Positions 62 to 41,290 of a DNA stretch of 64,000 nt are shown here, piece by piece (position 1 is the first letter of the stretch; each line of letters starts with the position of its first letter). Under the pieces are notes generated by a model. The model had not been told where the DNA came from. It was given only the letters and a program-made list of their open reading frames with translations, and made no database searches. The position numbers and the translations under genes were made by a program. The stretch lies in NCBI GenBank assembly GCA_038231435.1, contig JBBRLJ010000015.1:1-64000 (forward strand), in the 5' to 3' direction. Origin of the DNA: Planctomycetota bacterium (GTDB taxonomy: Bacteria; Planctomycetota; UBA11346).

Positions 62-203
62 CTAAACCGCGGCGTGAGCCGCCGGCCGCCGAGTCCTGGT
101 TTGCGTGAATAATGGGCGCAGCCCATCACGCAAACTTTCTGGCCGCCCGGCGGACAGAAAGAAGGACGACAAAGGCCGTGGGGGCTCGGGGGCGGAGCCC
201 CCG
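62..203 (-). repeat. Structured intergenic repeat, subfamily A, copy A1 (three-way-junction core 83-178)
   Basis: Contains GGTTTGCGTGAATAATGGGCGCAGCCCATCACGCAAAC, near-identical to copies at 13.7k, 33.2k, 33.3k and 41.2k. Terminal hairpin CGGGGGC-GGA-GCCCCCG at 187-203. Strand given for the T-bulge orientation. Confidence 0.9.
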
Positions 204-206
204 TAC

Positions 207-968
207 TTAAGGCACCAGGACGGCCTGATCGCCTTCCTTGACATCATCGTTCGGATCGACGAGCGAGCCTTTGACGATCTCGCCGTACGAGAGCGCGTCG
301 GAGACGCGGATGATCTTGCAGGTCGCGATCGAGAGGTTGCCGCGGTTGATGGCGAAGCGCTGGTTGACGATGACGCCTTGCTTGGCGCCGGCGCCGATGG
401 CGGCGACGTTGGCCTTGCCCGAGCTGCCGATGTCGACCGCGTAGACCTTGGTCGCGATGCGTTTCGGCTGGGCCGGCTGGTTAGGTAGAGTAGTGGGAGT
501 CGGGGTTGGCCCGGTCGCCACGGCGGGCGCCTCGCTGGGCGCGGACGCCACGGCGGTGGGCCCGGCTGGCGTGGGCGCGGCGGAGCTGTCGCCATCGAGC
601 AGCGAGGTCGCGCGGCGCACGCTCGCCTTGCCTTCCTGCGAGAGCGGCGCCGCCATCGTCGACGCGCTTGGCTTGGGCGCGGCCGCGATCTGCATCACCA
701 GCGACGCGTCATAGAGGGTGACGCGGCTGTCGACCAGGCCCTTGGCGAGTGCGTCGAGCTGGGTCGCCAGCGCCGCCTGTCCGCCGGCCTCGGCGTCGCG
801 CGCGCGCGCGCGGATGATCTCGACGGCGATGCGCGTGGCCTCGTCGCCCGGGATACCCGGGGCGTTGGCCGTGGGCGCAACGGTGGCCGGGGGGATCGGG
901 GTGGTCGGGTTGGTGTCCTGGGCGCAACACGCGGAGGCGGCGAGAATGATCAGGAGGAGCGATCTCAT
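207..968 (-). CDS. Secreted hypothetical protein with Pro/Ala/Thr linkers and a C-terminal FlgT-C-like beta-barrel
   Basis: Signal peptide MRSLLLIILAASACCAQ. ATG overlaps the TGA of the upstream epimerase (ATGA at 965-968). C-terminal pattern IGAGAKQGV...FAINRG...IIRVSDALSYGEI...VKEGDQAV. Confidence 0.7.
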   Translation of the reverse strand: MRSLLLIILAASACCAQDTNPTTPIPPATVAPTANAPGIPGDEATRIAVEIIRARARDAEAGGQAALATQLDALAKGLVDSRVTLYDASLVMQIAAAPKPSASTMAAPLSQEGKASVRRATSLLDGDSSAAPTPAGPTAVASAPSEAPAVATGPTPTPTTLPNQPAQPKRIATKVYAVDIGSSGKANVAAIGAGAKQGVIVNQRFAINRGNLSIATCKIIRVSDALSYGEIVKGSLVDPNDDVKEGDQAVLVP

Positions 969-2032
969 CGGCGATCCTTGCGTGCTTTTGCGGGGGCGGT
1001 GCTTGCTGACGGGTCGGGATCGGCGGTATGCGTGGACAGTACCGCCGGCAGGCGCGAGCTCGCGGGGCGGCGACGATGCCACTCGAGGCTCTCGCGGACG
1101 ATCGCGTCGAGATCCAGGCGCTGTTTCCAGCCGGTGAGGCCGACCAGCTTGGAGACGTCGGGGAGCCGGCGACGCATGTCCTCGAAGCCGCCGTCGGGGA
1201 AGGCGCGGTCGTAGGGGATGAGATCGATGCGCGAGCGGCTGCCCGAGGCGGCGAGCACCTTGCGCGCGAGCTCCGCGATCGAGACCTCCTCGGTGGCGCC
1301 GACGTTCACCACCTGTCCAACCGCGGCCGGACAGTCGAGCAGCGCCAGCACCGCGGAGACCGCGTCCGCGACGTGCAGGAAGCAGCGCGACTGGCCGCCG
1401 TCGCCGTGCACCTCGAGCGCGCGGCCCGCGAGCGCGGCCTCGCAGAAGCGCGGCAGCACCATGCCGTAGTGCGCGCTCTGGCGCGGACCGGTGATGTTGA
1501 AGAAGCGCGCGATCGTCACCGGCAAGCCGCGCTCGCGGACATAGGCGAGGGCGAGGAACTCGTCCATCAGCTTCGAGCAGGCGTAGCTCCAGCGGTGCAG
1601 CGAGCTCGAGCCGAGCACGCTGTCGTCGTCCTCGCGGAACGGCGCGTGCGCCTGCTTGCCGTAGACCTCGCTGGTCGAGGCGTACAGCACCGGCTGCTTG
1701 CCGTGGGCGTGCGCGGCACGCAGCACCGTGGCCGTGCCGTGCAGGTTGGTGACGATGCTGTTGACCTGGCGCTCGAGGATGCGGCGTACGCCCACCGCGG
1801 CGGCCAGATGCACGATGCGCTCGACCTGCTGGCAGGCCTCGTCGACCACCAGTTCGTCGCACACCGAACCATGGATCATCGCCAGGCGGGCGTGACCCTT
1901 GAGGTGCGAGAGGTTGGCTTCCGTGCCAGTCGAATGGTCGTCGAGCACCAACACGTCGTCGCCGCGTCCGATCAGAGCCTCGACGAGGTGGCTGCCGATG
2001 AAGCCGCAGCCGCCGGTGACCAGGTAACGCAT
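965..2032 (-). CDS. NAD-dependent nucleotide-sugar epimerase/dehydratase (extended SDR)
   Basis: LVTGGCGFIGSHL Rossmann motif, HLAAAVGV, ASTSEVYG, YACSK catalytic motif, RFFNITGPRQ. Confidence 0.92.
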   Translation of the reverse strand: MRYLVTGGCGFIGSHLVEALIGRGDDVLVLDDHSTGTEANLSHLKGHARLAMIHGSVCDELVVDEACQQVERIVHLAAAVGVRRILERQVNSIVTNLHGTATVLRAAHAHGKQPVLYASTSEVYGKQAHAPFREDDDSVLGSSSLHRWSYACSKLMDEFLALAYVRERGLPVTIARFFNITGPRQSAHYGMVLPRFCEAALAGRALEVHGDGGQSRCFLHVADAVSAVLALLDCPAAVGQVVNVGATEEVSIAELARKVLAASGSRSRIDLIPYDRAFPDGGFEDMRRRLPDVSKLVGLTGWKQRLDLDAIVRESLEWHRRRPASSRLPAVLSTHTADPDPSASTAPAKARKDRR

Positions 2033-4658: not shown

Positions 4659-4731
4659 GGCTTGGCTCTCGGGACGACACGGTGACATCGTCGACCTGAG
4701 GTCAAGGGAGATGCGGACTTTCAGTTATCAC

Positions 4732-4894
4732 AGGGGCTTCGCCCCTACGGCCCGGTCGGGCCTACCCCACGGGCTTTGTCGGGGCTCGATGTCTTCGCTT
4801 CGCTACGACATCGTCGGCGGATGGCTTCGCCATGATATCCGCCGACCGCGCCTGGGCGCCCGGTTGCTGCGCAACGGATGGAGGACGCGGCGTC
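4732..4894 (+). repeat. Structured intergenic repeat, subfamily B, copy B1 (core 4770-4862)
   Basis: Colinear similarity to 28989-29151 (CCCCTACGGCCC...GGGCCTACCCCACGGGCTTTGTCG...GACATCGTCGGCGGATGG...TATCCGCCGACC...GGCGCCCGGTTGC). Same fold as subfamily A. Confidence 0.88.
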
Positions 4895-4952
4895 GTAGAT
4901 CGAGGCCTGCGCTGCTGTCGCGCGCGCGCGCGAGGGGACGTGGCTGGATGAT

Positions 4953-12102: not shown

Positions 12103-13620
12103 ATGTCCTTCAAGATCGCCTTCATCGGCGCCGGTTCGATCGGATTCACGCGAGGTCTGCTGCGCGACCTGCTCGCGGTGCCCGAGTTCAAGGACATCGA
12201 GGTCGCCTTCCACGACATCAGCAAGCAGAACCTCGACATGGTCACCCAGCTGGCCAGGCGCGACATCGCCGCCAACGGCTTGAAGGTCAAGATCACCCCG
12301 TCGCTCGACCGGCGCGCCTCCCTGAAGGACGCCAAGTACGTCTTCTGCGTCGCCCGCATCGGCGGCATCGAGGCCTTCCAGTCCGACATCGACGTGCCGC
12401 TCAAGTACGGCGTCGACCAGTGCGTGGGCGACACCCTCTGCGCCGGCGGCATCATGTACGGCCAGCGCGGCATCGCGGCGATGCTCGACTTCTGCAAGGA
12501 CATCCGCGAGGTTTCGGCGCCCGATGCGCTGCTCCTAAACTACGCCAACCCGATGGCGATGCTGACCTGGGCGGCGAACGTCCACGGCGGCGTGAAGTGC
12601 GTCGGCCTCTGCCATGGCGTGCAGGGCGGACACCACCAGATCGCCTCGGCGTTCGGCCTCAAGAAGCACGAGGTCGACATCGTCGCCGCCGGCATCAACC
12701 ACCAGACCTGGTACATCAAGGCCTCGCACAAGGGCAAGGATCTGCTCCCCGGCCTGCTCGAAGCCTTCGAGAAGAACCCGCACTTCAACAAGACCGAGAA
12801 GGTGCGCATCGACATGATGCGCCGCTTCGGCTTCTACAGCACCGAATCGAACGGCCACCTCAGCGAGTACGTGCCCTGGTACCGCAAGCGCCCGAGCGAG
12901 ATCTCGAAGTGGATCGACACCGGATGCTGGATCAACGGCGAGACCGGCGGCTACCTGCGCGTCTGCACCGAGGGCCGCAGCTGGTTCGAGACCGACTTCC
13001 CGAACTGGATGAAGGCCGAGCCGATGAAGTTCAAGCCCGAGAACCGGGGCGAGGAGCACGGCTCGTACATCATCGAGGGTCTCGAGACCGGGCGCATCTA
13101 CCGCGGCCATTTCAACGTCATCAACCGCGGCTGCATCACCAACCTGGCCCCCGACGCCATCGTCGAGGTGCCCGGCTACGTCGATCGCAGCGGCATGAAC
13201 ATCCCCATCATCGGCGACCTGCCGCTCGGCTGCGCCGCAGTGTGCACCGCCTCGATCAACGTTCAGCGCATGTCGGTGAAGGCCGCGGTCACTGGCGACG
13301 TCGAGCTGCTCAAGCAGGCGATGCTCATGGATCCGCTCATCGGCGCGGTGTGCAATCCGCCCGAGGTCTGGCAGATGGCCGACGAGATGCTGGTCGCCCA
13401 GGCCAAGTGGCTGCCGCAGTACAAGACCGGCATCGCCGAGGCGAAGAAGCGCCTCGCCGAAGCCAAGCGCAAGGGCACCCTGATCGCGACCCGCGAGGGC
13501 TATGCGGGCGCGGTGCGCATCCACACCAAGACGGTGGCCGAGATGAAGGCCGATCGCGCGGCGGCGAACGAGAACGCCGGCGAATCCGACAAGGCCAAGG
13601 TGCGCAAGGCCGCGGGTTGA
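12103..13620 (+). CDS. melA: GH4 NAD+/Mn2+-dependent alpha-galactosidase/alpha-glucosidase
   Basis: KIAFIGAGS, VGDT..GG, NYANP, GLCHGV, GINH, TESNGHLSEY; AGGAG RBS. Confidence 0.92.
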   Translation: MSFKIAFIGAGSIGFTRGLLRDLLAVPEFKDIEVAFHDISKQNLDMVTQLARRDIAANGLKVKITPSLDRRASLKDAKYVFCVARIGGIEAFQSDIDVPLKYGVDQCVGDTLCAGGIMYGQRGIAAMLDFCKDIREVSAPDALLLNYANPMAMLTWAANVHGGVKCVGLCHGVQGGHHQIASAFGLKKHEVDIVAAGINHQTWYIKASHKGKDLLPGLLEAFEKNPHFNKTEKVRIDMMRRFGFYSTESNGHLSEYVPWYRKRPSEISKWIDTGCWINGETGGYLRVCTEGRSWFETDFPNWMKAEPMKFKPENRGEEHGSYIIEGLETGRIYRGHFNVINRGCITNLAPDAIVEVPGYVDRSGMNIPIIGDLPLGCAAVCTASINVQRMSVKAAVTGDVELLKQAMLMDPLIGAVCNPPEVWQMADEMLVAQAKWLPQYKTGIAEAKKRLAEAKRKGTLIATREGYAGAVRIHTKTVAEMKADRAAANENAGESDKAKVRKAAG

Positions 13621-13624
13621 TAAT

Positions 13625-13770
13625 CGGGGGGCTGGCGCCCCCCAAACCCCCCAACGACCTTTGTCGTCCTTCACCCTGGCCGCTATGCGGCCAGGGTGTT
13701 TGCGTGATGGGCTGCGCCCATTGTTCACGCAAACCAGGACTCGGCGGTCGGGGCGGCGGAGCCGCCCTAA
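13625..13770 (+). repeat. Structured intergenic repeat, copy A2 (core 13655-13750)
   Basis: CGACC-TTT-GTCG-TCCT-TC-[ACCCTGGCCGC-TAT-GCGGCCAGGGT]-[GTTTGCGTGA-TGGGCTGCGCCCA-TTGT-TCACGCAAAC]-C-AGGA-CT-CGGC-GGTCG. Confidence 0.92.
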
Positions 13771-13852
13771 TGGGCGTGTGCTTGTACGAGAAGCTTCTGG
13801 GTGACTGGCCTGTCATCGTGGCTAGGGGCTCCATACTTCGAAGGAGGTCATC

Positions 13853-14658: not shown

Positions 14659-14829
14659 CGGGGCGCTGCCCCCGTTTTCCCACGGCCATTGTCGTCCTTC
14701 CTTCTGTCCGTCGGGAGGACTGAAATTTTTCATGATCTGCTTCGCAGATTGTTCAGGAAATCAGGACTTGGCGGCCGCAGGGGTGGAAAAGCACCTCACT
14801 CCTGGAGCCCCATCGCTCCGCAATGGGGC
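14659..14829 (+). repeat. Structured intergenic repeat, diverged copy A3 (core 14683-14777)
   Basis: CGGCC-ATT-GTCG-TCCT-TC...ATCTGC-TTC-GCAGAT-TGT...C-AGGA-CT-TGGC-GGCCG. The apical stem differs from ATGGGC/GCCCAT but still pairs. Confidence 0.8.
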
Positions 14830-14904
14830 GGGCGCCGAGTGACGATCGGCGGATACCATCGGCGATGATGATTCACCGAAGATGTCGCCGGCCCCCGGCC
14901 GATA

Positions 14905-14941
14905 TTGACTTTCAAACAGATGTTTTAATGTCCTGTTTGAA
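14905..14941 (+). promoter_or_regulatory. Putative TetR autoregulatory operator next to a TTGACT -35 box
   Basis: AT-rich island with inverted repeat TTCAAACAG (14911-14919)/CTGTTTGAA (14933-14941) and inner imperfect palindrome TTCAAACAGATGTTTTAA, 25 nt upstream of the TetR start. Confidence 0.65.
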
Positions 14942-28984: not shown

Positions 28985-28988
28985 TCAA

Positions 28989-29151
28989 GTAGAGGCGCTG
29001 CCCCTACGGCCCTATGGGCCTACCCCACGGGCTTTGTCGTGGTTCGATGTCGCGTGACGGCGACATCGTCGGCGGATGGGCTTCGCCCATTGTATCCGCC
29101 GACCACCCCTCGGCGCCCGGTTGCTTCGCAACGGATCGAGGGCGCAGCGTC
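28989..29151 (+). repeat. Structured intergenic repeat, subfamily B, copy B2 (core 29028-29119)
   Basis: GTAG...CTAC hairpins, then CGGGC-TTT-GTCG-TGGT-TC-[GATGTCGC..GCGACATC]-[GTCGGCGGA-TGGGCTTCGCCCA-TTGTA-TCCGCCGAC]-C-ACCC-CT-CGGC-GCCCG. Confidence 0.9.
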
Positions 29152-29174
29152 ATGTGGGGAACGGGGTCGATGTA

Positions 29175-31027: not shown

Positions 31028-31110
31028 GGCCGTGGCTCGTCGCGCGCTGACCCCTGGAACCGGGCTCGGGTTGTCGTATCACCCACGGCTCCACCCCACG
31101 AGCCACTCCC

Positions 31111-31869: not shown

Positions 31870-31872
31870 GGT

Positions 31873-31997: not shown

Positions 31998-32092
31998 ATT
32001 CCTCCACCTCCAGTGGAAATTTCGCTCTCCCTTCCGAACCGCGGCTTTTGCGCGCGATGCGGATCCGCCACCATGGCGCGCAGGAGAACGCC

Positions 32093-33100
32093 ATGGTGAA
32101 GGTCGGAATCATCGGACTCGGCATGATGGGGCGGACGCATTACGAGGCGTACGCAAAGGTGCCGGGCGCGCAGGTGGTCGCGGTCGCGGACATGGACCCG
32201 AAGCGCGCCAAGGGCGACCTCTCTGGAACCGCCGGCAACGTGGTGGCGGGCGAAGTCTCGCAGCTGCCGATGGACCGCATCAAGGGGTTCTCTGACTATC
32301 GCCAGCTGATCGCGATGCCCGAGGTGGACGTGGTCGACATCTGCCTGCCCACCACCTCGCATCGCGAGGTCGCGCTCGCAGCGCTCACCGCCGGCAAGCA
32401 CGTGCTGTGCGAGAAGCCGCTCGGCCGCGACCTCGCCGATGCCACGGCCATCGCCGCCGCAGCTGCCGCCGCCAAGGGCTTCTTCATGCCGGCGATGTGC
32501 ATGCGCTTCTGGCCGGGCTGGACCTGGCTCAAGGCGGCGGTCGCCGAGCGGCGCTACGGCACGGTGGTGTCCGCCACCTTCCGCCGCGTCGCCTCGATGC
32601 CGGCCGGCTGGTATCGCGACGGCAAGCTCTCGGGCGGCGCGGCGCTCGATCTGCACATCCACGATACCGACTTCGTCTACCACCTCTTCGGCAAGCCGGC
32701 GTCGGTGTTCAGCCGCGGCTACGCCAAGACTTCGGGCGCCATCGATCATCTCGTCACCCACTACCTGTACGAGCGCGGCCCGCTGGTGGTCGCCGAAGGC
32801 GGCTGGGCGATGGCCGACGGTTTCGGATTCTCGATGCGTTACACGGTGAATTTCGAGCGCGCCACTGCCGACTTCGATCTCGCGCGGGCGCAGCCGTTGA
32901 TGCTCGCGCAGGGGGGGAAGTCCGAGACCGTCCCTTGCGGTTCGGAGACCGGCTACGAAGGCGAGCTGGCGTACTTCATCGATTGCGTGGCGAAGAAGCG
33001 TCGCCCCGAGACCGTCACCGCTCAGCATGCGGTTGACGGCCTCGCCATCATCGAGGCGGAGGTGAAGAGCATCGCCGAGGGCCGTCCGGTGGCTTTATAG
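32093..33100 (+). CDS. Gfo/Idh/MocA family oxidoreductase
   Basis: GIIGLGMMG, DVVDICLPT..H, HVLCEKP, DLHIHD; AGGAG RBS. Confidence 0.93.
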   Translation: MVKVGIIGLGMMGRTHYEAYAKVPGAQVVAVADMDPKRAKGDLSGTAGNVVAGEVSQLPMDRIKGFSDYRQLIAMPEVDVVDICLPTTSHREVALAALTAGKHVLCEKPLGRDLADATAIAAAAAAAKGFFMPAMCMRFWPGWTWLKAAVAERRYGTVVSATFRRVASMPAGWYRDGKLSGGAALDLHIHDTDFVYHLFGKPASVFSRGYAKTSGAIDHLVTHYLYERGPLVVAEGGWAMADGFGFSMRYTVNFERATADFDLARAQPLMLAQGGKSETVPCGSETGYEGELAYFIDCVAKKRRPETVTAQHAVDGLAIIEAEVKSIAEGRPVAL

Positions 33101-33220
33101 CCGGGGGCTCTGCCCCCGGGCCCCCGCGCGCCTTTGTCGCCCTTCATTTTGGCCGCGGGCCAAAATGTTTGGGTGATGGGCTGCGCCCATTGTTCACCCA
33201 AACCAGAGCTCGGCGGCCGG
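33101..33220 (+). repeat. Structured intergenic repeat, copy A4 (first of a tandem pair)
   Basis: GGGGGCTCTGCCCCC...CCTTTGTCGCCCTTC-ATTTTGGCC-GCG-GGCCAAAAT-GTTTGGGTGA...TCACCCAAAC-CAGAGCTCGGCGGCCG; starts immediately after the TAG of the Gfo gene. Confidence 0.92.
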
Positions 33221-33232
33221 GTGCTATTTAGT

Positions 33233-33388
33233 CGGGGGCTCTGCCCCCGGGCCCCCGCGCGCCTTTGTCGTTCTTCTTTTTGTCCGTGCCGGCCAAAAAG
33301 TTTGCGTGATGGGCTGCGCCCATTGTTCACGCAAACCAGAACTCGGCGGCCGGCGGCTTTGGCCGCGGTTTAAAGGGGCTCTGCCCCT
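33233..33388 (+). repeat. Structured intergenic repeat, copy A5 (second of the tandem pair) plus a trailing AGGGGCTCTGCCCCT hairpin
   Basis: First about 38 nt identical to A4; GTTTGCGTGA/TCACGCAAAC stem; TTCT/AGAA replaces TCCT/AGGA. Confidence 0.92.
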
Positions 33389-33558
33389 GCTTCACGCACG
33401 CTGCGGCAGAGGTCGGGCACGGCGGCTCCGCAGGCCGGTTGGCGGATTTCCATGAGACCAACGGCGATGCCATGCGCGGGTTCAGGCGAACCACGGAGCT
33501 GGGTCTCCGTCTGAATAGTACCTAAGGAACGGCCGCGTCGGCCGTAGTCGTGGTACGC

Positions 33559-34092
33559 ATGACGGCAATCGTCTGGATCGATGAAGCGGTGGCGCGTTAC
33601 GAACGCCCGTTGGTCGCCTATGCCTGGCGGCTGGCGGGCGATCTCGAGGCGGCGCGCGACGCGGTGCAGGACACCTTCATGCGCTTGTGCGATCAGCCAG
33701 AGGACGCGGTGCGTTCGCACCTGGCCGAGTGGCTGTTCACCGTCTGTAGGAACCGCTGCCTCGACCACCTGCGCAGATGCCGAACGGAGAGACCCATGGA
33801 CGCCACCGCCGACGAACCCGCTTCCGAGACCCATCCCGCCGCGCCCATCGAGGCGAGCGAATCCTCGGCCGGTCTGCTGGTGGCGCTCGCCTCCCTGCCG
33901 AGCCGGCACCAGGAGGTGGTGCGGCTGAAGTTCCAGGGTGGCTGCTCGTACCGCGAGATCAGCCGCATCACCAAGCTCACCGAAGGCAACATCGGCTTCA
34001 TCATCCACACCGCGATCCAGTCGCTGCGCGCCAAGCTGGCGGCCGATCCGGTATTCGCAGATCGCGCTGCACGTACCCCCACCAACGCCTGA
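33559..34092 (+). CDS. ECF sigma-70 factor
   Basis: AARDAVQDTFMRL, WLFTVCRNRCLDHLR (region 2); LPSRHQEVVRLKF..SYREIS (region 4). Alternative GTG at 33550. Confidence 0.9.
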   Translation: MTAIVWIDEAVARYERPLVAYAWRLAGDLEAARDAVQDTFMRLCDQPEDAVRSHLAEWLFTVCRNRCLDHLRRCRTERPMDATADEPASETHPAAPIEASESSAGLLVALASLPSRHQEVVRLKFQGGCSYREISRITKLTEGNIGFIIHTAIQSLRAKLAADPVFADRAARTPTNA

Positions 34093-34099
34093 GGATCCC

Positions 34100-36262
34100 A
34101 TGCACGCTGACACCGACCACGATCAGGATCTCACCGCCTACGCCCTCGGCGAACTGCCGCCCGCCGCGGCGGCGGCCATGGAGCGCCGGCTCGTCACTGA
34201 TGCCGCAGGCCGCGTGGAAGTGGAGCGGATCCGTGTCGAAGCCACCGCGCTGCGGGTCGCCTTCGCTGCCGAGGTCGGCGCTGGGCTCGGATCGGCGCGA
34301 CTCGCCGCCCTCGCCGCATCCGCATCCACGGCTTCCGTCGTCACCTCGCCCGACGCGTCCACGGGACGGACGCCACGCGCAGCGTCGATGCTCCGGATGC
34401 GACCGACGCGTTCGATGCTCATGCTCGCTGGCGGAGCCTCGCTCGCAGCTGCGGCGTTGACTTGCGCGTTGATCATACCGGATGGCATCCGCCATTCCCA
34501 TGGGACCGGGAATGGCGGAGAAGTCCCCGTCACCATGGTGCATCACCAGTTGCCCCCGATCGGCAGCCGTTTGCCTCTCGCCAAGAAGGAGGAGATGCCC
34601 GTCTCCGTCACCGTGGACCTCGACGAGACCGTAGAGCCGATTGCAATCCTCGACCTGCCGCTCCAGGAGCGTGGCATCGAATCCCAGGCCGGACTCGAAT
34701 GCGACGTGAAGGGGCCGCAGGTCGCATTCATGGCCGTGGGCAGTGGATCACCGCTTTCTGGTAAGATGGCGAAGTCTCGACTCCAGGTCGGACGGGTCGG
34801 CGTCAACGCCTCCGAGGAGATGGATGACTCCGCGACGGTCGAGAGCTATGACGGCGTGGGCGACAATCCCTTCCATGCTTCCGTCCACGATCCGCTCAGC
34901 ACGTTCTCGATCGACGTCGACACCGCCAGCTACGCCAATGTCCGCCGCTATCTCGCCGGCGGGCATCTGCCCCCGAAGGGCGCGGTGCGCATCGAGGAGC
35001 TGGTGAACTATTTTCCCTACCACGACGCTCCGCCGCGCGACGACAAGCCGTTCGCGGTCGACTACGAGGTCGGGCCGTGCCCATGGGAGCCGTCGCACCA
35101 GCTCGCGCGCGTGTCGCTGCGCGGCAAGGACATCGACCTCTCGCATCGTCCGGCGGCGAATCTGGTCTTCCTGCTCGACGTCTCGGGCTCGATGAACGAA
35201 CCCAACCGCCTGCCCTGGGTGCAGGCCTCGCTGCACATGCTCGTCGACCAGCTGCGCGCCGACGACCACGTGGCGATCGTGGTCTACGGAGGCGAGTCCG
35301 GCCTGGTGCTGCCGAGCACGCCTGCGTCGAACCGCGCCAGGATCCTGGCTGCGATCGACTCGCTGCATCCGGGCGGATCGACCAATGGCGCGTCGGGCAT
35401 CCAGCTCGCCTATGACACCGCCCACGCGGCCTTCGTGAAGGACGGCATCAACCGCATCGTGCTCTGCACCGACGGGGATTTCAATGTCGGCGTCAGCGAC
35501 CGCGATGGCCTGACCAGGCTGCTCGTCGACGAGGCCAAGGGCGGGGTGTTCCTGTCGGTGCTCGGCTTCGGCAAGGGCAACCTCAAGGACGAGACCATGG
35601 AAGCGATGGCCGATCACGGCAACGGCAACTACGCCTACATCGACACCCTGGGCGAGGCGCGCAAGGTGCTGGTCGAGCAGATGTCGGGCACGCTGATCAC
35701 CATCGCCAAGGACGTGAAGATCCAGGTCGAGTTCAATCCGGCGCGTGTCGGCGCCTATCGCCTGATCGGCTACGAGAACCGCCTGCTCGCAGCACGCGAC
35801 TTCAACGACGATCGCAAGGACGCCGGCGAGATCGGCGCCGGGCACACCGTCACCGCGCTCTACGAGCTGGTCCCCGCCGGAGCGCCGCTGCCCGAGGCCG
35901 GCGTCGATCCGCTCAAGTACCAGACGACCGCCACGCCCAGCTCGGTCGGCGCCGCGGGCTACGAGCTGATGACGGTGAAGCTGCGCTCCAAGCGCCCCGA
36001 TGCCGATGCCAGCACGCTGATGGAGGTGCCGGTGCAAGGCGCGGTGGCCGACGTCGATGCCACCAGCGAGGACTTCCGCTTCGCCGCCGCGGTGGCAGCG
36101 TTCGGAATGCTGTTGCGCGATTCCCCGCACCGCGGCCACGCCAGCTACGCCCAGGTCGAAGCGCTGGCACAATCGGGCATCGGCCGCGACGAGCACGGCT
36201 ACCGCTGCGAATTCGTGGGTCTGGTGCGCCAGGCGGCGGCGCTCGCGGCGGCGGGACGCTGA
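34100..36262 (+). CDS. YfbK-like vWA protein: N-terminal anti-sigma-like segment, TM, vWF_A, VWA, DUF3520
   Basis: LTAYALGEL anti-sigma-like N-terminus; STFSIDVDTASYANVRR; DVSGSM MIDAS; TDGDFNVG; IAKDVKIQVEFNP; YRLIGYENR; GAGG RBS. Confidence 0.9.
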   Translation: MHADTDHDQDLTAYALGELPPAAAAAMERRLVTDAAGRVEVERIRVEATALRVAFAAEVGAGLGSARLAALAASASTASVVTSPDASTGRTPRAASMLRMRPTRSMLMLAGGASLAAAALTCALIIPDGIRHSHGTGNGGEVPVTMVHHQLPPIGSRLPLAKKEEMPVSVTVDLDETVEPIAILDLPLQERGIESQAGLECDVKGPQVAFMAVGSGSPLSGKMAKSRLQVGRVGVNASEEMDDSATVESYDGVGDNPFHASVHDPLSTFSIDVDTASYANVRRYLAGGHLPPKGAVRIEELVNYFPYHDAPPRDDKPFAVDYEVGPCPWEPSHQLARVSLRGKDIDLSHRPAANLVFLLDVSGSMNEPNRLPWVQASLHMLVDQLRADDHVAIVVYGGESGLVLPSTPASNRARILAAIDSLHPGGSTNGASGIQLAYDTAHAAFVKDGINRIVLCTDGDFNVGVSDRDGLTRLLVDEAKGGVFLSVLGFGKGNLKDETMEAMADHGNGNYAYIDTLGEARKVLVEQMSGTLITIAKDVKIQVEFNPARVGAYRLIGYENRLLAARDFNDDRKDAGEIGAGHTVTALYELVPAGAPLPEAGVDPLKYQTTATPSSVGAAGYELMTVKLRSKRPDADASTLMEVPVQGAVADVDATSEDFRFAAAVAAFGMLLRDSPHRGHASYAQVEALAQSGIGRDEHGYRCEFVGLVRQAAALAAAGR

Positions 36263-36305
36263 CGCCAACGCCAATGCCGACAGGGCAGCTCGCCGAGCGG
36301 ACGCT

Positions 36306-37148
36306 TCACATCGCCAGGATCTTCGCCATAGCCTTCCTGGTCTTGCCCAGCAGATCCGGCCGAGCTGGCATCATCTCGGCGACCAATGTCCCATCGTAGC
36401 CGATGGCGCGCAGCGCCGGGATGATCTCGGCAAACGGCACGTCGCCTTCAAGCAGGTCGCAGAACCCGGCGAGGCCTCCGACCTGCTTCTTGAAGTCCTT
36501 GATGTGCACGCGGCGGATGCGCTTGCCGAGGATCGCGATCCAGTGCGGCGGATGCTGGTGGTAACCGAGCACGTTGCCGACGTCGAAGTAGACCCCGACG
36601 CGCTTGGAGCCGATGCCGTCGATCAGCGCGGCGAACTCGATGGGCGAATAGAACAGCCCGTTCCAGACGTTCTCCACGCACAGGTCGACGTCCACCTTCT
36701 CGGCGACCTCGGCGAGGCGGACGATGCCTTCCGAGGCCCAGGCCGCGGCGCGGTCGTATGGCACCGGGCCGTAGCCCGGCTCCCAGGGGATGGTGACCGC
36801 GCCAGGCACGTAGAGCATAGCCTTCGCGCCGACCCAGGCCGCCCGCTGCAGCGCGGCGGCGTGGAGCGTGATCGCGCGCTCGCGCACTGCGCGATCCGGA
36901 TGGGTGGGCGAGCACCCCCAGCTCATGCCGCTGGCCACGGTCTCGAGCGCCAGACCCTTGGCGGCGGCGAGCTGGCGGTAGCCCGCGCAGGTCTTCTCGT
37001 CGCTGGTGGGCGTGAGCACCCCGGTTTCGCCGACGCCGAGCTCGATGCCATCGAATCCAGCGGCCTTGGCCTCGTCCAGGGCTTCGGCAACGGGACGCGT
37101 GTTCTCGAGCCCGCCTGCGATGGACCAATAGCTGATGATGGCGCGCAT
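36306..37148 (-). CDS. Sugar phosphate isomerase/epimerase (xylose isomerase-like TIM barrel, hexulose-phosphate epimerase-like)
   Basis: GFDGIEL, VENVWN, FDVGN, VHIKDF, GDV, GYDG..VAE; GGAGG RBS. Confidence 0.9.
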   Translation of the reverse strand: MRAIISYWSIAGGLENTRPVAEALDEAKAAGFDGIELGVGETGVLTPTSDEKTCAGYRQLAAAKGLALETVASGMSWGCSPTHPDRAVRERAITLHAAALQRAAWVGAKAMLYVPGAVTIPWEPGYGPVPYDRAAAWASEGIVRLAEVAEKVDVDLCVENVWNGLFYSPIEFAALIDGIGSKRVGVYFDVGNVLGYHQHPPHWIAILGKRIRRVHIKDFKKQVGGLAGFCDLLEGDVPFAEIIPALRAIGYDGTLVAEMMPARPDLLGKTRKAMAKILAM

Positions 37149-37385
37149 GCGACCTCCGTCTGGGTATGCACGGACCATAGGGGGGCTGGCCCGGGCGGTG
37201 GGAATGGGCTTGGACCCGCGAAGGATGAAGTTCCAATCGCACTGGAGGATTTGCGCCCACGCCTCCGGGCGCGGGTCTTGCGCCGCGTCCACGCCGGGTA
37301 ACACGATCGCGCCCGGCATTCCCGACATCGTCCACTCATCAGCGACATCGTCCTATCTCCGACCTACTTACGACCGACACCAGAC

Positions 37386-38393
37386 ATGACCACCAAGCCG
37401 AACCTGCTGATCAATCTGCCCAAGGGCTTCTTCAAGACCCCGGCCATGGCGCCGGTCTTCAAGCGGCTCGGCGCCATCGCCGAGGTGCGCAGGCGCTCGC
37501 ACAATACCCACGATGAGATCGCCAAGGATCTGGCCTGGGCCGATGCGGTGATCATGTGGTCGTGGCCGGCCTACACCCCGGAGCTGCTCGCCCGCGCGCC
37601 CAAGCTGGCGTTCTCGGGACACCTCGACATCAACCAGGCCGGCGCCCGCGTCGCGCTCGCGCACGGCCTGCCGGTGTCGCTGAGCAAGAAGGCATGGGGC
37701 CCATCGGTCGCGGAGATGGCGCTGACTCTGATCCTGACCACCCTGCGCAAGACCAGCTCCTACCACGCCGCGATGCGCGTCGGCAAGGAGGCCTGGGTCG
37801 CTGATTTCCCCATCGACATCGACACCGACGAACGCCAGCTCACCGGGCGTCCGGTCGGCATCGTGGGCTTCGGTGCGGTTGGCCAGCGCGTCGCAGAACT
37901 GCTTGCGCCATTCCGCTGCCAGGTGCGGGTCTACGACCCGTTCCTGCCGGCCGAGATCGCCGAGCGCGCTGGAGCGTCGCGCGTCGAGCTCATGGACCTG
38001 ATCCGGAATTCGGATGTGGTGGTGCTGTGCGCCGCCTCGAACCCGGGCACCGCATCGCTGCTCGGCAAGCGCGAGCTCGCTGCGTTCCGCAAAGGAGCGG
38101 TGCTGGTGAACGTGGCGCGCGCCGCCCTGGTCGACACCGCCGCCCTGGTGGCACGCCTGAAGAAGAACGACTTCTACGCCGCCATCGACGTCTTCGATCT
38201 CGAGCCGCTCGCGCGCAATTCGCCCCTGCGCAAACTGCCGAACGCGTTCCTGACCCCGCATCGCGCCGGCGGCGTGATGGAGTCGGTGGTGCGCATCGTC
38301 TCGTGGCTCGCCGACGACTTCGAGGCGCACCTCGCGGGCAAGCCGCGCGCGCACGCCTTGAGCGAGAAGCAGCTGCCTGCTCTCGACGCCTGA
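37386..38393 (+). CDS. D-isomer specific 2-hydroxyacid dehydrogenase
   Basis: SVAEM, GIVGFGAVG, LVNVARA, IDVFDLEP, LTPHRAG. Confidence 0.9.
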   Translation: MTTKPNLLINLPKGFFKTPAMAPVFKRLGAIAEVRRRSHNTHDEIAKDLAWADAVIMWSWPAYTPELLARAPKLAFSGHLDINQAGARVALAHGLPVSLSKKAWGPSVAEMALTLILTTLRKTSSYHAAMRVGKEAWVADFPIDIDTDERQLTGRPVGIVGFGAVGQRVAELLAPFRCQVRVYDPFLPAEIAERAGASRVELMDLIRNSDVVVLCAASNPGTASLLGKRELAAFRKGAVLVNVARAALVDTAALVARLKKNDFYAAIDVFDLEPLARNSPLRKLPNAFLTPHRAGGVMESVVRIVSWLADDFEAHLAGKPRAHALSEKQLPALDA

Positions 38394-38395
38394 TT

Positions 38396-38445
38396 CCATC
38401 TCCAAGACATCCATCCTCCAGACATCCATCCATCCCGCCCGCCCA
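38396..38445 (+). repeat. Low-complexity TCCA/ATCC short tandem repeats
   Basis: TCCATCTCCAAGACATCCATCCTCCAGACATCCATCCATCCCGCCCGCCC. Confidence 0.5.
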
Positions 38446-38457
38446 CCTAGGACCCAT

Positions 38458-39279
38458 ATGGCCGACCCGATCAAGTTCAGCGCTCCCGACTGGTGCTTCT
38501 TCCGCGAGAATCCCGACCCGGCGGCCTACTACCGCAAGCTCAAGCAGCTCGGCTTCACCGGCGTCGAGATGGTCGATCCATCGCGCTGGCCCGCGGCCCG
38601 CTCCGCCGGACTCTCGATTCTCAACATTCCCGGACCGGGCATGGAGAAGGGCCTCAACCGCGTCGAGAACCATGCCGAATTGGTGCCGAAGATCCGCGCG
38701 CTGATCGATCAGGCGGCATTCGAGAAGATCCCCCATGTCATCGTCTTCAGCGGCAACCGCGGCGGGCTCGACGATCGCACTGGCCTGTCGAATTGCGCGA
38801 CCGCCCTCGGCCCATTGGCGCGCGAAGCCGACAAGGCGCGGGTGACGCTGATCTTCGAGATGTTCTGCCAGCAGAACCATCCGGATTACATGGCCGACAA
38901 CTCGCGCTTCGGCTTCGACCTCGTGCAGAAGGTCGGCTCGCGCTCGCTGAAGGTGCTCTACGACATCTACCACATGGCGCAGATGGGCGAGGACGTCATC
39001 AAGGACATCACCGGCAATCTCAAGTCGGTCGCGCACATCCATGTCGCCGAGAAGCCCAAGCGCACCGCCCCGCTCCCGGCCGGCGAGATCCCGTACGGCA
39101 AGATCGTGCGCGCGGTGCACGAGGCCGGCTACAGCGGCTATTGGGGCCTCGAATACCACGCCGCTCCGGACCATTTCTCCGAAATGGGCGAGGCTCTCAT
39201 GGCCCTCAAGTCGGGGGCATCCGGTCCCACGGCTTCGGCCTCCGGCCTGCCCCCCAAGAAGCAGGATCAGGGGGGATAG
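38458..39279 (+). CDS. Hydroxypyruvate isomerase family TIM-barrel protein
   Basis: GFTGVEM, IVFSGNR, HPDYMAD, LYDIYHM, HIHVAE..RTAP..GEI, GYWGLEY. Confidence 0.85.
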   Translation: MADPIKFSAPDWCFFRENPDPAAYYRKLKQLGFTGVEMVDPSRWPAARSAGLSILNIPGPGMEKGLNRVENHAELVPKIRALIDQAAFEKIPHVIVFSGNRGGLDDRTGLSNCATALGPLAREADKARVTLIFEMFCQQNHPDYMADNSRFGFDLVQKVGSRSLKVLYDIYHMAQMGEDVIKDITGNLKSVAHIHVAEKPKRTAPLPAGEIPYGKIVRAVHEAGYSGYWGLEYHAAPDHFSEMGEALMALKSGASGPTASASGLPPKKQDQGG

Positions 39280-39287
39280 GAACGTCG

Positions 39288-40670
39288 GTGAACAAGCTCG
39301 ATCAGTCGTCCTTGCGCATCATGCGCAAGTTCGCGGGCTTCGTTGCATGCGCGGTGTGCGCCCTCAACGGGTTCGGCGCCGCTTCCATGGTCGCTGCTGC
39401 CGAGACTGCCAAGGCCGAGGAACCGGCGTTCGAGAGCCGTGAGAGCGGGGAGTGGCCACAGTACGGATACGACGCGGGGTGCCGGTTCGCGACACCTGGA
39501 TCGCTGGCCTCGGTGCTCAAACCCAAATGGGTGTTCAAGCGGGCGCCGCCGGCGGCGCGAATCGCATCCATCATCATCCATGGCGATCGCGTGCTGGTCG
39601 AGTGCACTGGCGATCAGAATGGCGACGCCAAGATCGGCGATCCCGCGAACAATCCGTACCTCTACGGCCTCGACGCCGCGACTGGGGCCAAGGCTTGGGA
39701 GTGGTCGCACAAGCACGACATGGGCATCGGCTGCACGCTCGCGGTGTCGGGGACCAAGCTGTTCTACAACGACGACGGCTTCGGCTGGGTCGATGTCGAG
39801 AAGGGTGGAGGCAACGATTTCGGCAGCTCGGCCGATAGCTGGGGTTACATCAATGTCGATGCCAAGGCCGGGCTGGTGGTGAAGTCCAACACCTGGCGCG
39901 TCGACAATCCCGAGACCTCGATCGAGGGCTTCGGCCTGGACGGCAGCCACAGGTGGACGGCCCTCAACGACAATGGCCAGAAGACCCAGGATCGCATGGC
40001 CTTCGCCTCGCTCTGCCAAGGCGCGGGCCTGGTGTTCGTGTCGGTCGAATGGTCCGGACCTTCGCCGAAGAAGCACAAACAGGGGTTGTACGCCCTGAAG
40101 CAAGCCGACGGCAGCGAGGCATGGGGCGTCGAGGGCGATTGGGGCGGCGTATCGTGCGACGGAAACTTCGTGTACTGCGTGCTCAAGGACGCCAAGGGCT
40201 GCAAGCTCTGCTGCCTGACGCCAGGCGATGGCAAACCGCAATGGTCGGCCAACGTCGGTCAGCACGTCCATCATCCGCCGGCCCTGGGCCGCGGCATGTG
40301 CGTGCTGGTCACCGATGGCGGCACCTTGCTGGCGGTGCCGAGCGAAGGTGCCAAGGCGGGCAAGGCTCTGGCATGGCAAGGCCAGACCGAGCCACCGCTC
40401 AAGGGCGACGGCGTATCGGTGCGCAATTCGGTGCTCGCCATCGCCGAAGGCGCCGGCAAGAACGGCGTGTTGGTGGTGGCGAATGGCAAATCGGTGCGCT
40501 GCCTCGATCTGAAGCGCGGGTCGCCGTTGGGCGAACTTCCCTGGGATCCAGCGCTCGGCGCCGCCGAGAATCCGGCCATCGCCGACGGGTGCCTGGTGGT
40601 GAACGGCTCCGAGGGCGTGATGTGCTACGGCCCGCCTCCCGACAAGAAGGACAAGGCGAAAGCGAAATGA
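39288..40670 (+). CDS. Exported PQQ/BamB-like beta-propeller repeat protein
   Basis: Signal peptide; WPQYGYDAG; repeated LYGLDAATGAKAW, LYALKQADGSEAW, LTPGDGKPQW. Start is GTG 39288 or ATG 39321. Confidence 0.85.
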   Translation: MNKLDQSSLRIMRKFAGFVACAVCALNGFGAASMVAAAETAKAEEPAFESRESGEWPQYGYDAGCRFATPGSLASVLKPKWVFKRAPPAARIASIIIHGDRVLVECTGDQNGDAKIGDPANNPYLYGLDAATGAKAWEWSHKHDMGIGCTLAVSGTKLFYNDDGFGWVDVEKGGGNDFGSSADSWGYINVDAKAGLVVKSNTWRVDNPETSIEGFGLDGSHRWTALNDNGQKTQDRMAFASLCQGAGLVFVSVEWSGPSPKKHKQGLYALKQADGSEAWGVEGDWGGVSCDGNFVYCVLKDAKGCKLCCLTPGDGKPQWSANVGQHVHHPPALGRGMCVLVTDGGTLLAVPSEGAKAGKALAWQGQTEPPLKGDGVSVRNSVLAIAEGAGKNGVLVVANGKSVRCLDLKRGSPLGELPWDPALGAAENPAIADGCLVVNGSEGVMCYGPPPDKKDKAKAK

Positions 40671-41131
40671 GCTCTCACGCGCGAGATGTACCTGGGGTGG
40701 TTGCGATGATCGGTCGCATCCTGCTCGGCGTGACCACGGCGATGGTCGTGCCCGCATCGCTCGTGCTGGTTTCCTGCGGAGAGACTCCAGCACCCGCGCC
40801 CGCGCCAGCTGCCATTCAAGTGGACCCCGCGGATCCCACGATGGCGTCCCCGGTTGCCCCCGCGTCTATGCCCGTGCCAGAGCCCGTGTCGAAGCAAGGG
40901 ACGCTGCCGGCAGAAACGGTGACTCCCGCGCTCGCGGCCGATGCACCGCAACTCGAACAGCCCGCCGTCGAGGCGAAGCCGACGACGGCGCACTACGTAT
41001 GTCCCAGACACCCGCAGGTGATCAGCGACATTCCGGGCAAGTGTCCAGAGTGCGGCCTGAAACTCATGAAGCGCGCCGCCGACGCGCCTCCACCCACGCC
41101 GTCCACGGAAGTTCCGCCCCCGCGACCTTGA
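40667..41131 (+). CDS. Pro-rich lipoprotein with a heavy-metal-binding domain (HMBD)
   Basis: Lipobox LVSC; YVCPRHPQVISDIPGKCPECGLKL; ATGA overlap with the upstream gene. Confidence 0.8.
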   Translation: MSSHARDVPGVVAMIGRILLGVTTAMVVPASLVLVSCGETPAPAPAPAAIQVDPADPTMASPVAPASMPVPEPVSKQGTLPAETVTPALAADAPQLEQPAVEAKPTTAHYVCPRHPQVISDIPGKCPECGLKLMKRAADAPPPTPSTEVPPPRP

Positions 41132-41163
41132 CCGTCGCCGCGCTACGAACGCCCGGAGACACC

Positions 41164-41290
41164 TAAAAAACCCGAGCGGCGCAGCCGCGAGCGCCCGCCG
41201 AGCTCCGGTTTGCGTGAACAATGGGCGAAGTCCATCACGCAAACGTTTTCGCGCGTAGCGCGAAAACGAGGAGCGGCAAAGGGCGGGGGC
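41164..41290 (-). repeat. Structured intergenic repeat, copy A6 (core 41192-41285)
   Basis: Minus strand: CGCCC-TTT-GCCG-CTCC-TC-[GTTTTCGCGC-TAC-GCGCGAAAAC]-[GTTTGCGTGA..TCACGCAAAC]-C-GGAG-CT-CGGC-GGGCG. Confidence 0.9.

Follow-up and report, generated by a model that had tools for sequence, protein, structure and literature searches.

A family-specific multi-hairpin repeat of Planctomycetota with a DNA-like loop grammar on its purine-rich strand

Introduction

REP sequences have been described as protein-binding sites (PMC4690160), and RAYT is reported to bind and cleave REP DNA in single-stranded form (PMC3733652, PMC4690160). Di Nocera et al. have argued that many REPs act at the RNA level (PMC3733652). 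Transposition of IS200/IS605 elements proceeds via ssDNA (PMC6006769). Certain DNA hairpins are exceptionally stable: d(GCGNAGC) is reported to melt at 76.5 °C, compared with 39 °C for r(GCGAAAGC), the common RNA loops being GNRA and UNCG, and hairpins of the GCGNAGC type are described as poorly bound by SSB and as functional at the origins of ssDNA phages and within N4 promoters (PMC13037366). DNA mini-hairpins are reported to depend on the closing pair (PMC3201870).

Here we describe a repeat found in a 64,000-nucleotide stretch (the window) of a 5.2-Mb Planctomycetota MAG. A first-pass annotation had suggested, from GNA triloops on one strand, that the repeat folds as single-stranded or cruciform DNA.

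Results

All hairpins listed in the first-pass annotation were present in the window by direct reading (Table 1). An nhmmer search of the MAG placed the "A" and "B" repeats in a single superfamily of about 320 merged copies at 216 loci, a count of copies that overstates independent events because copies share descent. Matches were confined to one bacterial family, that of the source MAG. The elements are gene-less, dispersed and multi-hairpin, with a repeat unit of 130–185 nt and 5–7 helices. They lie mostly at gene 3' ends, often in head-to-tail arrays (71 head-to-tail versus 33 inverted). Copy B2 is missing from the orthologous gap, between the same convergent genes, in two congeners; at least this copy is an insertion relative to them. 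An IS insertion was specific to the repeat element.

Table 1. Repeat copies and selected hairpins in the window (P, purine-rich strand)
Feature	Position	Strand	Description
Copy A1	41..215	+	P on +; core 80-180; P1b loop GCA
A1 upstream hairpin	44-60	+	GGGGGC-TTGA-GCCCCC
A1 hp0	69-84	+	CGCGGC-GTGA-GCCGC
A1 P1b hairpin	113-125	+	TGGGC-GCA-GCCCA
A1 P4	190-204	+	GGGGGC-GGA-GCCCCC
Complement of TGGGC-GCA-GCCCA	~13709, ~33178, ~33311		read directly
Copy B1	4731..4900	-	P on -; inner hairpin variant ATGGC-GAA-GCCAT
TTGC-GCA/GAA-GCAA	~4863, ~29121		read directly
Copy A2	13615..13775	-	P on -; core 13653-13753; P1b loop GCA
Copy A3	14660..14779	-	degenerate; nhmmer 49.8 bits
A3 hairpin	14737-14747	-	CTGC-GAA-GCAG, found once
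Partial B-like copy	14827..14908	+	head-to-head with A3
Copy B2	28985..29170	-	P on -; occupies gap separating two convergent stop codons
Copy A4	33083..33222	-	unit 1 of head-to-tail pair with A5; P1b loop GCA; terminal loop AGA on P
Copy A5	33214..33358	-	unit 2 of head-to-tail pair with A4
Copy A6	41176..41361	+	P on +; core 41189-41287
A6 hairpin	41223-41235		TGGGC-GAA-GTCCA; G-T pair on P
A6 P2	~41250		GCGC-GTA-GCGC

The tail of copy A1 overlaps the stop codon of a minus-strand gene at position 207. In copy B1, P2 is GC-GAA-GC with purine mismatches on its flanks and hp0 is TTGC-GCA-GCAA, while the terminal hairpin of A2, GGGGGGC-GCCA-GCCCCCC, has a G..A tetraloop. The core of A6 is followed by an extra partial unit with the terminal hairpin GGGGGC-AGA-GCCCCC. 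The partial B-like copy has an hp0 of the type CCCCATCGC-TCC-GCAATGGGG, which violates the GNA rule described below.

Around a three-way junction, the 100-nt core builds five helices that covary: P-1, P0, P1, the P1b nested inside it, and P2. In a comparison across MAGs, 23 of its 31 pairs vary on both sides. Paired cells made up 91.8% of the core alignment, versus 75.8% in shuffles (0/500 reached 91.8%), and 34–44% when partners were slid. RNAalifold, unaided, found four of the core helices. P-1 and P0 are long-range, covarying over 80 nt with two other hairpins inside. The internal loop GCCGA/GACAAA is near-invariant (GCCGA 51/56, GACAAA 53/56), the bulge TACAA is kept in 49/56, and the junction consists of unpaired G and GA, the junction G being present in 56/56. 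Folding was strong for either strand, whether as DNA or as RNA (z-scores −4 to −6.4). P is the stabler strand in 221/260 copies with DNA parameters and in 167/260 with RNA parameters, and nearest-neighbour folding separated neither the two strands nor DNA from RNA chemistry.

Loop sequences were tabulated on P. Among 816 triloops on stems of at least 4 bp, 489 were c-GNA-g and 52 c-TNC-g, and the loop-closing pair was oriented 5'C-G3' (489, versus 9 g-GNA-c). As had been proposed from the window, G and A are kept and the middle base varies, taking all four values (A 144, C 144, G 110, T 91). Triloops account for 816/1154 element loops (71%); the tetraloops on P included 56 c-GNYA-g versus 10 c-GNRA-g, and 3/172 were of UNCG type. 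The enrichment is genome-wide: scored on perfect 5-bp triloop hairpins, the class c[G..A / T..C]g comprised 571/880 (65%) of element hairpins, versus 516/10973 (4.7%) in coding DNA and 165/1233 in other intergenic DNA.

Per-hairpin counts of c-GNA-g versus c-TNC-g, from the 259 of 320 copies parsed by two anchors, were 192 versus 0 for P1b, 94 versus 2 for P2, 60 versus 0 for P3 (with 55 further c-GNNA-g) and 128 versus 3 for P4. The rule is thus common to four different hairpins with unrelated stems. P2 is frequently GA-GC-GNA-GC-GA, which includes the GCGNAGC mini-hairpin, and about half of P2 loops are non-GNA (CCG, CCC, CTG). The first-pass annotation's restriction of GNA loops to one strand holds for these four hairpins and breaks down at the 5' hairpin hp0, which is mixed (39 versus 41); its common form, CCCCATCGC-TCC-GCGATGGGG, places a GGA loop on the opposite strand in 38 copies, which counts against folding of P as DNA.

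Single mismatches on P were purine-purine in 342 and pyrimidine-pyrimidine in 31 of 410 cases; bulges on P are purines, and tandem G-A mismatches are also present. G-T wobbles preferred neither strand in three counts (13 versus 24, 7 versus 4, 33 versus 19) and were scarce on both (1.9% and 1.1% of cells), unlike in structured RNAs. By direct reading, the T-G wobble on the strand opposite P, as proposed earlier, is a feature of the A subfamily only (GTGA opposite TTGT).

A further 68 copies, taken from other MAGs, replicated the pattern; P1b was omitted there because the search pattern had forced it. These contained 73 GNA versus 4 TNC among 161 triloops, 27 GNYA versus 5 GNRA tetraloops, and 64 purine-purine versus 7 pyrimidine-pyrimidine mismatches. 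The loop G and A are kept with a variable middle base both inside subfamilies and across them, a pattern shared by at least 10 other MAGs. Because this strand-specific signature is replicated and fits the mini-hairpin rules, the data support P as the strand under structural selection, with a DNA-like loop grammar. Since its loops follow the rules of DNA mini-hairpins, folding of P as DNA is the best, if tentative, reading, an argument that rests on published thermodynamics of other sequences.

The element could also act as duplex DNA or a symmetric cruciform, either binding a nucleoid or topology protein or being simply a selfish palindrome-rich repeat, the loop bias being inherited, unselected, from a few master copies. 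E. coli BIMEs are bound by IHF and gyrase, short DNA palindromes need three-base centres for extrusion, and the copies here are related by descent. REPs are described as protein-binding sites (PMC4690160). We consider a duplex or cruciform role improbable, given the variable middle base between a kept G and A across subfamilies and MAGs, the same loop rule on unrelated stems, and the P-1/P0 covariation, which a duplex site would not need.

Gene context was examined with positions from a crude in-house gene caller. At 166/207 loci a gene 3' end lies on the tail side of P, so that read-through mRNA would carry the non-P strand. A stop codon lies −1 to 17 nt from the terminal hairpin at 133/143 measurable loci, and element-containing regions are enriched in convergent (46/114, versus 618/3916 in the background) and depleted in divergent (8/114) intergenic regions. 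This arrangement, together with good folding of the pyrimidine-rich strand as RNA (z-scores −3.95, −4.8), would fit a 3' UTR element of the upstream mRNA, a stabiliser or a terminator lacking a U-tract, comparable to enterobacterial REPs. Many REPs have been argued to act as RNA (Di Nocera et al., PMC3733652). On this 3' UTR reading the purine features of P would be by-products. Several observations make this unlikely. The 10-to-1 asymmetries all favour P, G-U pairs are not enriched on the pyrimidine-rich strand (pooled 53 versus 47), and a third of co-directional copies are oppositely oriented. No U-tract follows the element hairpins, and terminator-like sites numbered 8 versus 5.6 expected. 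We know of no structural reason to conserve U..C loop ends, C-U/C-C mismatches or a UUGUA bulge.

A gene 3' end lies on the 5' side of P at 79/135 loci, and there convergent read-through could yield P as RNA. P might function as RNA, either a small structured species or an element at RNA 3' ends, in an antisense or convergent read-through transcript, with its GNA loops and tandem G-A pairs serving as RNA motifs. In RNA, too, sheared tandem G-A pairs are stable; the five covarying helices, three-way junction and conserved A-rich unpaired segments rival those of many structured RNAs, and RNA parameters favour P in most copies (see above). Such a role is nevertheless doubtful, as it sits poorly with the excess of GNYA over GNRA, the near absence of UNCG, the prevalence of triloops, and G-U pairs that fill only some 2% of cells, with no bias towards P. 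Further, a 14-kb stretch with four copies yielded no sigma-70-like promoter, the hairpin at the 3' end of P is followed by an A-rich rather than U-rich tail, no Rfam family matched the element, and 60/88 copies (about two-thirds) within co-directional gaps carry P antisense to the adjacent gene.

By a replication-strand proxy, P lay on the G-rich strand in 139 versus 116 copies, which was not significant. The orientation data match no simple ssDNA-transposition model, including a lagging-strand, IS608-type model in which P moves.

The source MAG (87.6% complete) contained no REP_Tyr_transpos protein above the cut-off (best 22.9 bits versus 80) and no match to the TnpB zinc-ribbon. Its sole Y1_Tnp protein (348 aa, 33.9 bits) was rejected as the cognate enzyme, since it adjoins an integrase and its flanks are unrelated to the element. 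RAYTs occur in 4/5 relatives, where their own, different REPs flank them and the element HMM is blank. The RAYT, IS200-type and TnpB searches found no ssDNA-specific enzyme linked to the element.

Discussion

Loop and mismatch rules that apply to one strand only suggest that the element is folded and handled as ssDNA. Our leading, still tentative, reading is of a family-specific multi-hairpin repeat whose P strand folds as single-stranded or extruded DNA, which a putative structure-specific DNA enzyme would recognise and copy. The GNA caps and sheared G-A pairs would reflect a need for P to fold fast and stably as DNA; such mini-hairpins would withstand denaturation and evade SSB. The invariant unpaired bases may be recognition or cleavage determinants for a protein, as in REP/RAYT and IS200/IS605 ends. 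Of the original proposal of ssDNA or a cruciform, the one-strand DNA-like signature stands, replicated and joined by GNYA loops, tandem G-A pairs and purine bulges; indecisive folding energies, the lack of a linked enzyme and the orientation misfit weigh against DNA as the folding molecule.

Among known repeats, ERIC, BOX and Correia sequences are also modular, intergenic and strongly folded, 100–200 nt long, and gained or lost among relatives. They differ in being terminal-inverted-repeat or RNA-level elements, and we know of none in which a GNA/GNNA grammar is limited to one strand or a three-way junction is conserved. Integron attC sites share with the element a fixed orientation directly after stop codons, and they too act as a folded single DNA strand, in which extrahelical bases decide strand choice. 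Whereas attC sites belong to one cassette array, the element is multi-branched and scattered over its loci beside ordinary genes.

The proteobacterial REP/BIME/REPIN system with RAYT likewise has GC-rich extragenic hairpins in high copy number, sited at gene 3' ends and grouped in arrays. IS insertion into REPs occurs, as does specific targeting of the element here. B-type copies end in a REP-like pair of GTAG-tagged hairpins (GTAGGCCC...GGGCC-GTAGGGGC-GRA-GCCCC), and REPs are bound and cut by RAYT as single strands (PMC3733652, PMC4690160). In contrast, a REP is a 20–40-nt palindrome rather than a far longer unit with a covarying three-way junction, the element's arrays are mainly head-to-tail, and no RAYT is flanked by the element, those of related genomes being accompanied by other REPs.

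IS200/IS605 ends and the gene-less PATEs are similar in their imperfect one-strand DNA hairpins with extrahelical bases and in the short conserved motifs that adjoin the hairpin foot. They differ in that here no TnpB was found, the only Y1 family has unrelated flanks, and the proxy showed no replication-strand bias.

The loop rule of the element is identical to that of the d(GCGNAGC)/d(GCGNNAGC) mini-hairpins: G, any base or bases, A, and a 5'C-G3' closing pair. The promoters of the phage N4 virion RNA polymerase, described with 5-bp stems and GGA/GAA loops, resemble P4 of the element (PMC13037366). In phages these mini-hairpins are single functional sites, whereas in the element the motif caps several arms in hundreds of chromosomal copies.

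Copy number, arrangement and host range

Repeat finding in the window recovered the A and B copies of the element, as its multi-hairpin, gene-less repeats had been named, and each copy was then read individually. The Planctomycetota assembly (G000; 5.2 Mb in 108 contigs, ~68% G+C, 87.6% complete), whose contig C15 begins with the 64-kb window, was searched with iterated nhmmer seeded by one A and one B copy, giving 288 and 317 matches. The two sets of matches largely coincide, with 285 overlapping pairs, so that A and B form one superfamily. Merging left 320 copies, 149 on the plus and 171 on the minus strand, none of them within a called gene (4023 genes from our own codon-usage caller, 88.5% coding). 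The copies occupy 216 loci (130 single, 71 double, 12 triple and 3 quadruple), and the 104 pairs of neighboring copies comprise 71 head-to-tail, 27 head-to-head and 6 tail-to-tail arrangements. In a relative, G006, at least 12 units follow one another head-to-tail in one long array, at a spacing of ~149–155 nt that is interrupted by a few wider intervals. Inside a long minus-strand gene, the window also holds direct repeats (families D2, D4 and D8) whose periods are 63/66 nt and 126 nt; they look like a protein repeat of ~21 residues.

A pattern scan of public genomes showed the repeat to be almost confined to Planctomycetota MAGs. BLAST detected the element in 15 of 24 host-family genomes and in none of 16 from other families. 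With a covariance model built from 56 aligned cores, 4 of 6 genomes of the host family gave matches; elsewhere in the phylum, none of 144 genomes, representing 77 families, was matched. Searches of the literature on Planctomycetota REP/REPIN sequences, MITEs and intergenic repeats turned up no description of the element. Di Nocera et al. (PMC3733652) report, in broad terms, that Planctomycetes carry GTAG-tagged REPs, and that paper may list a related short hairpin.

Parts of the element in 5' to 3' order on the purine-rich strand with the purine bulge (P), with counts on P of triloops closed by a 5'C-G3' pair
Part	Place	Description	c-GNA-g	c-TNC-g	Remarks
hp0	5'-most	variable hairpin	39	41	exception to the rule
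P-1	after hp0	5-bp helix
GCCGA	after P-1	5' strand of internal loop
P0	after GCCGA	5-bp helix, then a single G
P1	after the junction G	9–10-bp helix with (T)ACAA bulge
P1b	inside P1	5-bp hairpin, TGGGC-GNA-GCCCA or TCGGC-GNA-GCCGA	192	0
P2	after P1	variable hairpin, then GA	94	2
Return strands	after P2 and GA	P0 return, GACAAA, P-1 return
3' hairpins	after P-1 return	one or two; B-type, GTAGGCCC-loop-GGGCC and GTAGGGGC-GRA-GCCCC
P3			60	0	also 55 c-GNNA-g
P4		terminal hairpin	128	3	also AAA 18, AGA 16
Tail	3' end	A-rich, ~10 nt

Coordinates of individual features
Feature	Location	Strand	Description
Stop codons of adjacent genes	window 205–209; 28982–28992		in or against the A-rich tail
Copy between convergent stop codons	window 28985–29170
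Skip in assembled contigs	window 33156 to 33290		133 nt
Direct repeats D2, D4, D8	window 43995–44609		inside gene 43401–46808 (minus strand)
Element array	G006:C7:176301–178225
IS end	G000:C20:97683–97727; ends of C7, C8, C11 and C64		found 5 times, always at a contig end
L084	G000:C28:22443–23489	-	sole Y1_Tnp (HUH) protein of G000, 348 aa, beside a tyrosine integrase
RAYT loci L091, L092, L093, L095, L096	G020, G006, G012, G009		flanking REP, e.g. GGGAGC-GCAGGC-TTCA-GCCTGC, unrelated to the element

A branched fold under selection

The 100-nt core was aligned for 7 window copies and 49 copies from other MAGs (n = 56). It is a three-way junction, since P0 and P-1 enclose both P1 and P2. In this alignment 23 of 31 pairs are altered on both sides; 248 cells are altered in this way, with the majority of changes fully compensated. 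Paired cells amount to 91.8%, compared with 75.8% in column shuffles (0 of 500 reached the observed value) and 34–44% with slid partners. Unguided, RNAalifold recovered P-1, P0, P1 and P1b. The most conserved letters lie in unpaired segments: GACAAA (53/56), GCCGA (51/56), TACAA (49/56) and the junction G (56/56). The fold is under selection. With hundreds of copies, a covarying branched fold and a handful of invariant unpaired bases, the family is a rich and testable case.

Loop and mismatch asymmetry between the two strands

The first-pass annotation had claimed that GNA triloops are concentrated on one strand of the element. Loops were assigned to individual hairpins in 259 of the 320 copies, parsed via two anchor motifs, and a census was taken of stems with at least 4 Watson–Crick pairs. 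Three-base loops made up 816 of 1154, among them 489 c-GNA-g, 52 c-TNC-g (a c-GNA-g on M, the pyrimidine-rich strand) and 9 g-GNA-c. The middle base of c-GNA-g varies (A 144, C 144, G 110, T 91). The exception is hp0, whose common form, CCCCATCGC-TCC-GCGATGGGG, would place GGA on M. Of 66 c-GNNA-g loops, 56 have a pyrimidine in third position (GNYA) and 10 are GNRA; UNCG-type loops account for 3 of 172 tetraloops. These loops conform to the d(GCGNAGC)/d(GCGNNAGC) motif, namely G-N-A or G-N-N-A with any N and 5'C-G3' closure. The sequence GA-GC-GNA-GC-GA, in which a GCGNAGC mini-hairpin sits on tandem G-A mismatches, recurs in many P2 hairpins.

The same asymmetry was seen in mismatches, counted on a Watson–Crick-only fold that treats both strands equally. 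Single mismatches (n = 410) are purine–purine on P in 342 cases and pyrimidine–pyrimidine in 31. The G-T (13) and A-C (24) types, which the first-pass annotation had proposed to compare per strand, are rare and favor neither strand.

Among perfect 5-bp triloop hairpins, loops of the form c[G..A / T..C]g account for 571 of 880 in elements, compared with 165 of 1233 in other intergenic sequence and 516 of 10973 in coding sequence. The strand bias was replicated in 68 distinct copies from other MAGs, with P1b omitted because the search pattern had fixed it: c-GNA-g outnumbered c-TNC-g by 73 to 4 among 161 triloops, GNYA outnumbered GNRA by 27 to 5, and purine–purine mismatches outnumbered pyrimidine–pyrimidine by 64 to 7. 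The claimed strand bias therefore holds genome-wide and in other MAGs, and is stronger than first stated. Selection on P as the folded strand is well supported.

DNA or RNA as the folded form

The first-pass annotation had further proposed that the element folds as single-stranded DNA. The loop grammar of P is the same as that of d(GCGNAGC) and d(GCGNNAGC), which points to DNA. According to PMC13037366, these hairpins form with any N, with a Tm of 76.5 °C compared with 39 °C for r(GCGAAAGC), and bind SSB poorly, while loops of functional RNAs are mostly GNRA and UNCG. The near-constant 5'C-G3' closing pair of the element matches the closing-pair dependence of the loop described in PMC3201870. 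In its strand-specific loop grammar, the element agrees with the physical chemistry of DNA hairpins and not with that of RNA hairpins.

Wobbles bear on the question in two ways. They make up just 1.9% of cells on P and 1.1% on M, and this rarity, like the predominance of compensated changes, was counted as a point for DNA. Their asymmetry between P and M is inconsistent across data sets and favors neither strand; a folded P of either chemistry would be expected to tolerate G-T above A-C.

A search of the whole window against Rfam gave no match at the gathering score, two element regions reaching only chance level (E 7 to 9.5, limit 10). A scan of window positions 28000–42000 showed no promoter-like sites (1.2 expected) and 8 terminator-like sites (5.6 expected). 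No U-tract follows the terminal hairpin, which is followed instead by the A-rich tail. The lack of promoter-like sites and of a U-tract was counted toward DNA. We also considered whether the terminal GGGGC-NNN-GCCCC hairpin is a native terminator that receives insertions; this was rejected, since elements contain 285 of the 327 hairpins of this form. Nearest-neighbor calculations were dropped as a discriminator of strand or chemistry: both strands fold well with DNA or RNA parameters, and P gains only ~2 kcal/mol in 45–90.

From the loop grammar and indirect arguments, folding of P as DNA is the best available reading, to which we give slightly less than an even chance. Real counter-signals come from the wobbles and the orientation of copies, and the search for an enzyme was negative.

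Orientation and gene context

Among the 88 copies between co-directional genes, P runs antisense to its neighboring gene in 60 (by region, 36 versus 13, with 11 mixed), a point in favor of DNA. The tail side of P faces the 3' end of a gene in 166 of 207 loci, so that the common transcript would carry M. Insertion in the manner of IS608, with P entering the lagging-strand template or the non-template strand, would predict the opposite orientation. By a GC3-skew proxy for the replication strand, which is weak on draft contigs with no visible origin, P shows no bias, lying on the G-rich strand in 139 versus 116 copies overall, and in 42 versus 37 copies where the signal is strong. The third-codon-position GC skew of G000 is -0.13 on the sense strand, i.e. 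its genes are C-rich, and this swamps any skew due to replication in simple profiles.

Of 143 cases that could be measured, 133 have a stop codon -1 to 17 nt from the terminal hairpin, and many genes have element sequence next to their stop codons. These codons often lie in or against the A-rich tail, and some genes may end in element-derived sequence.

Mobility and the search for a mobilizing enzyme

One window copy fills the space that separates a pair of convergent stop codons. Two congeneric genomes lack it, their corresponding stop codons being ~5–10 nt apart; at 70–85% identity between the genomes, the exact ends and any duplication are unreadable. No called gene was present on one side within the contig for 144 of 320 copies, consistent with assemblies breaking at the element, and in practice element copies break assembly. 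Assembled contigs of four DNA runs end at repeats, and none spans an empty site. The 133-nt skip, shown by single X3 and X4 contigs, might represent a one-unit variant of a tandem pair. In a search for an autonomous parent, 22 copy pairs 300–4000 nt apart were found to enclose 46 called genes.

An IS end with a terminal inverted repeat of at least 39 nt recurs at the same insertion spot in A-type copies, at the P1/P2 junction after ...TTTGG. It looks like an IS targeting the element.

In G000 (87.6% complete), no protein exceeded the NCBIfam cut-off for REP_Tyr_transpos (22.9 bits versus 80), and the TnpB zinc ribbon (PF07282) gave no match. The sole Y1_Tnp protein of G000 reached 33.9 bits with the Pfam model and 39.3 bits with REP_Tyr_transpos, where the cut-off is 80, and has no flanking elements. 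Its family (L084 and its relatives L085–L089) occurs in 22 of 24 genomes of the host family, often in multiple copies, and is present in 15 of 15 BLAST-positive but also in 7 of 9 BLAST-negative genomes. The flanks of six Y1 loci examined are unlike the element, with a single nhmmer match ~1 kb from the gene at one of them (L087), and short GTCTGTCCTGGGATTTTC-type direct repeats are found downstream of the G000 gene. The Y1 locus is probably a separate mobile element.

True RAYTs above the NCBIfam cut-off were present in 4 of 5 relatives searched, each with its own inverted REPs, several of them tagged GGGAGC/GCTCCC, and element HMMs gave no match in 10 RAYT loci of relatives. A role of RAYT, Y1 or TnpB as mobilizer of the element is not supported.

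Only for a few families of proteobacteria, to our knowledge, has it been settled by what route REP-like repeats spread and in which form, DNA or RNA, they act. Should the DNA reading be right, the sequence of a repeat is enough to reveal the strand and the chemistry that it uses, and the element would point to an as yet unrecognized structure-specific DNA enzyme in Planctomycetota. A bolder and rather unlikely proposal is that the element represents an undescribed class of chromosomal element, in which a compact branched ssDNA fold with SSB-resistant mini-hairpin caps would present invariant unpaired bases to an enzyme outside both the RAYTs and the IS200/IS605 transposases.

Comparison with known repeat systems

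The element behaves as a REP/BIME-type repeat, yet the tests for membership in the REP/RAYT systems and in the IS200/IS605 derivatives went against it. REPs exceed 100 extragenic copies per genome, and the element likewise, with 320. A REP unit is a 20–40-nt imperfect palindrome with a 5' GTAG or CGTC tag; the element has GTAG-tagged 3' hairpins in its B-type copies, but a 100-nt five-helix core with flanking hairpins. REPINs are inverted doublets and BIMEs alternate, whereas the element is mostly head-to-tail (71/104). A RAYT gene is flanked by the repeats that it mobilizes, whereas G000 has no RAYT over the cut-off at 87.6% completeness, and the element models gave no match at the 10 RAYT loci of the relatives.

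IS200/IS605 derivatives accompany a TnpA(Y1) and/or TnpB whose ends match the repeat, which was not found here. Their orientation follows the direction of replication, for which the weak GC3-skew proxy gave 139 versus 116 copies. MITEs of DDE transposons have terminal inverted repeats and a target-site duplication; the one empty site is too diverged for its exact ends or a duplication to be read, and the ends of the element, a variable hp0 and a hairpin with an A-rich tail, form no obvious inverted pair. Integron attC sites lie in one cassette array, in contrast to the 216 separate loci spread over contigs. The element is a new and more elaborate form of the REP/BIME kind.
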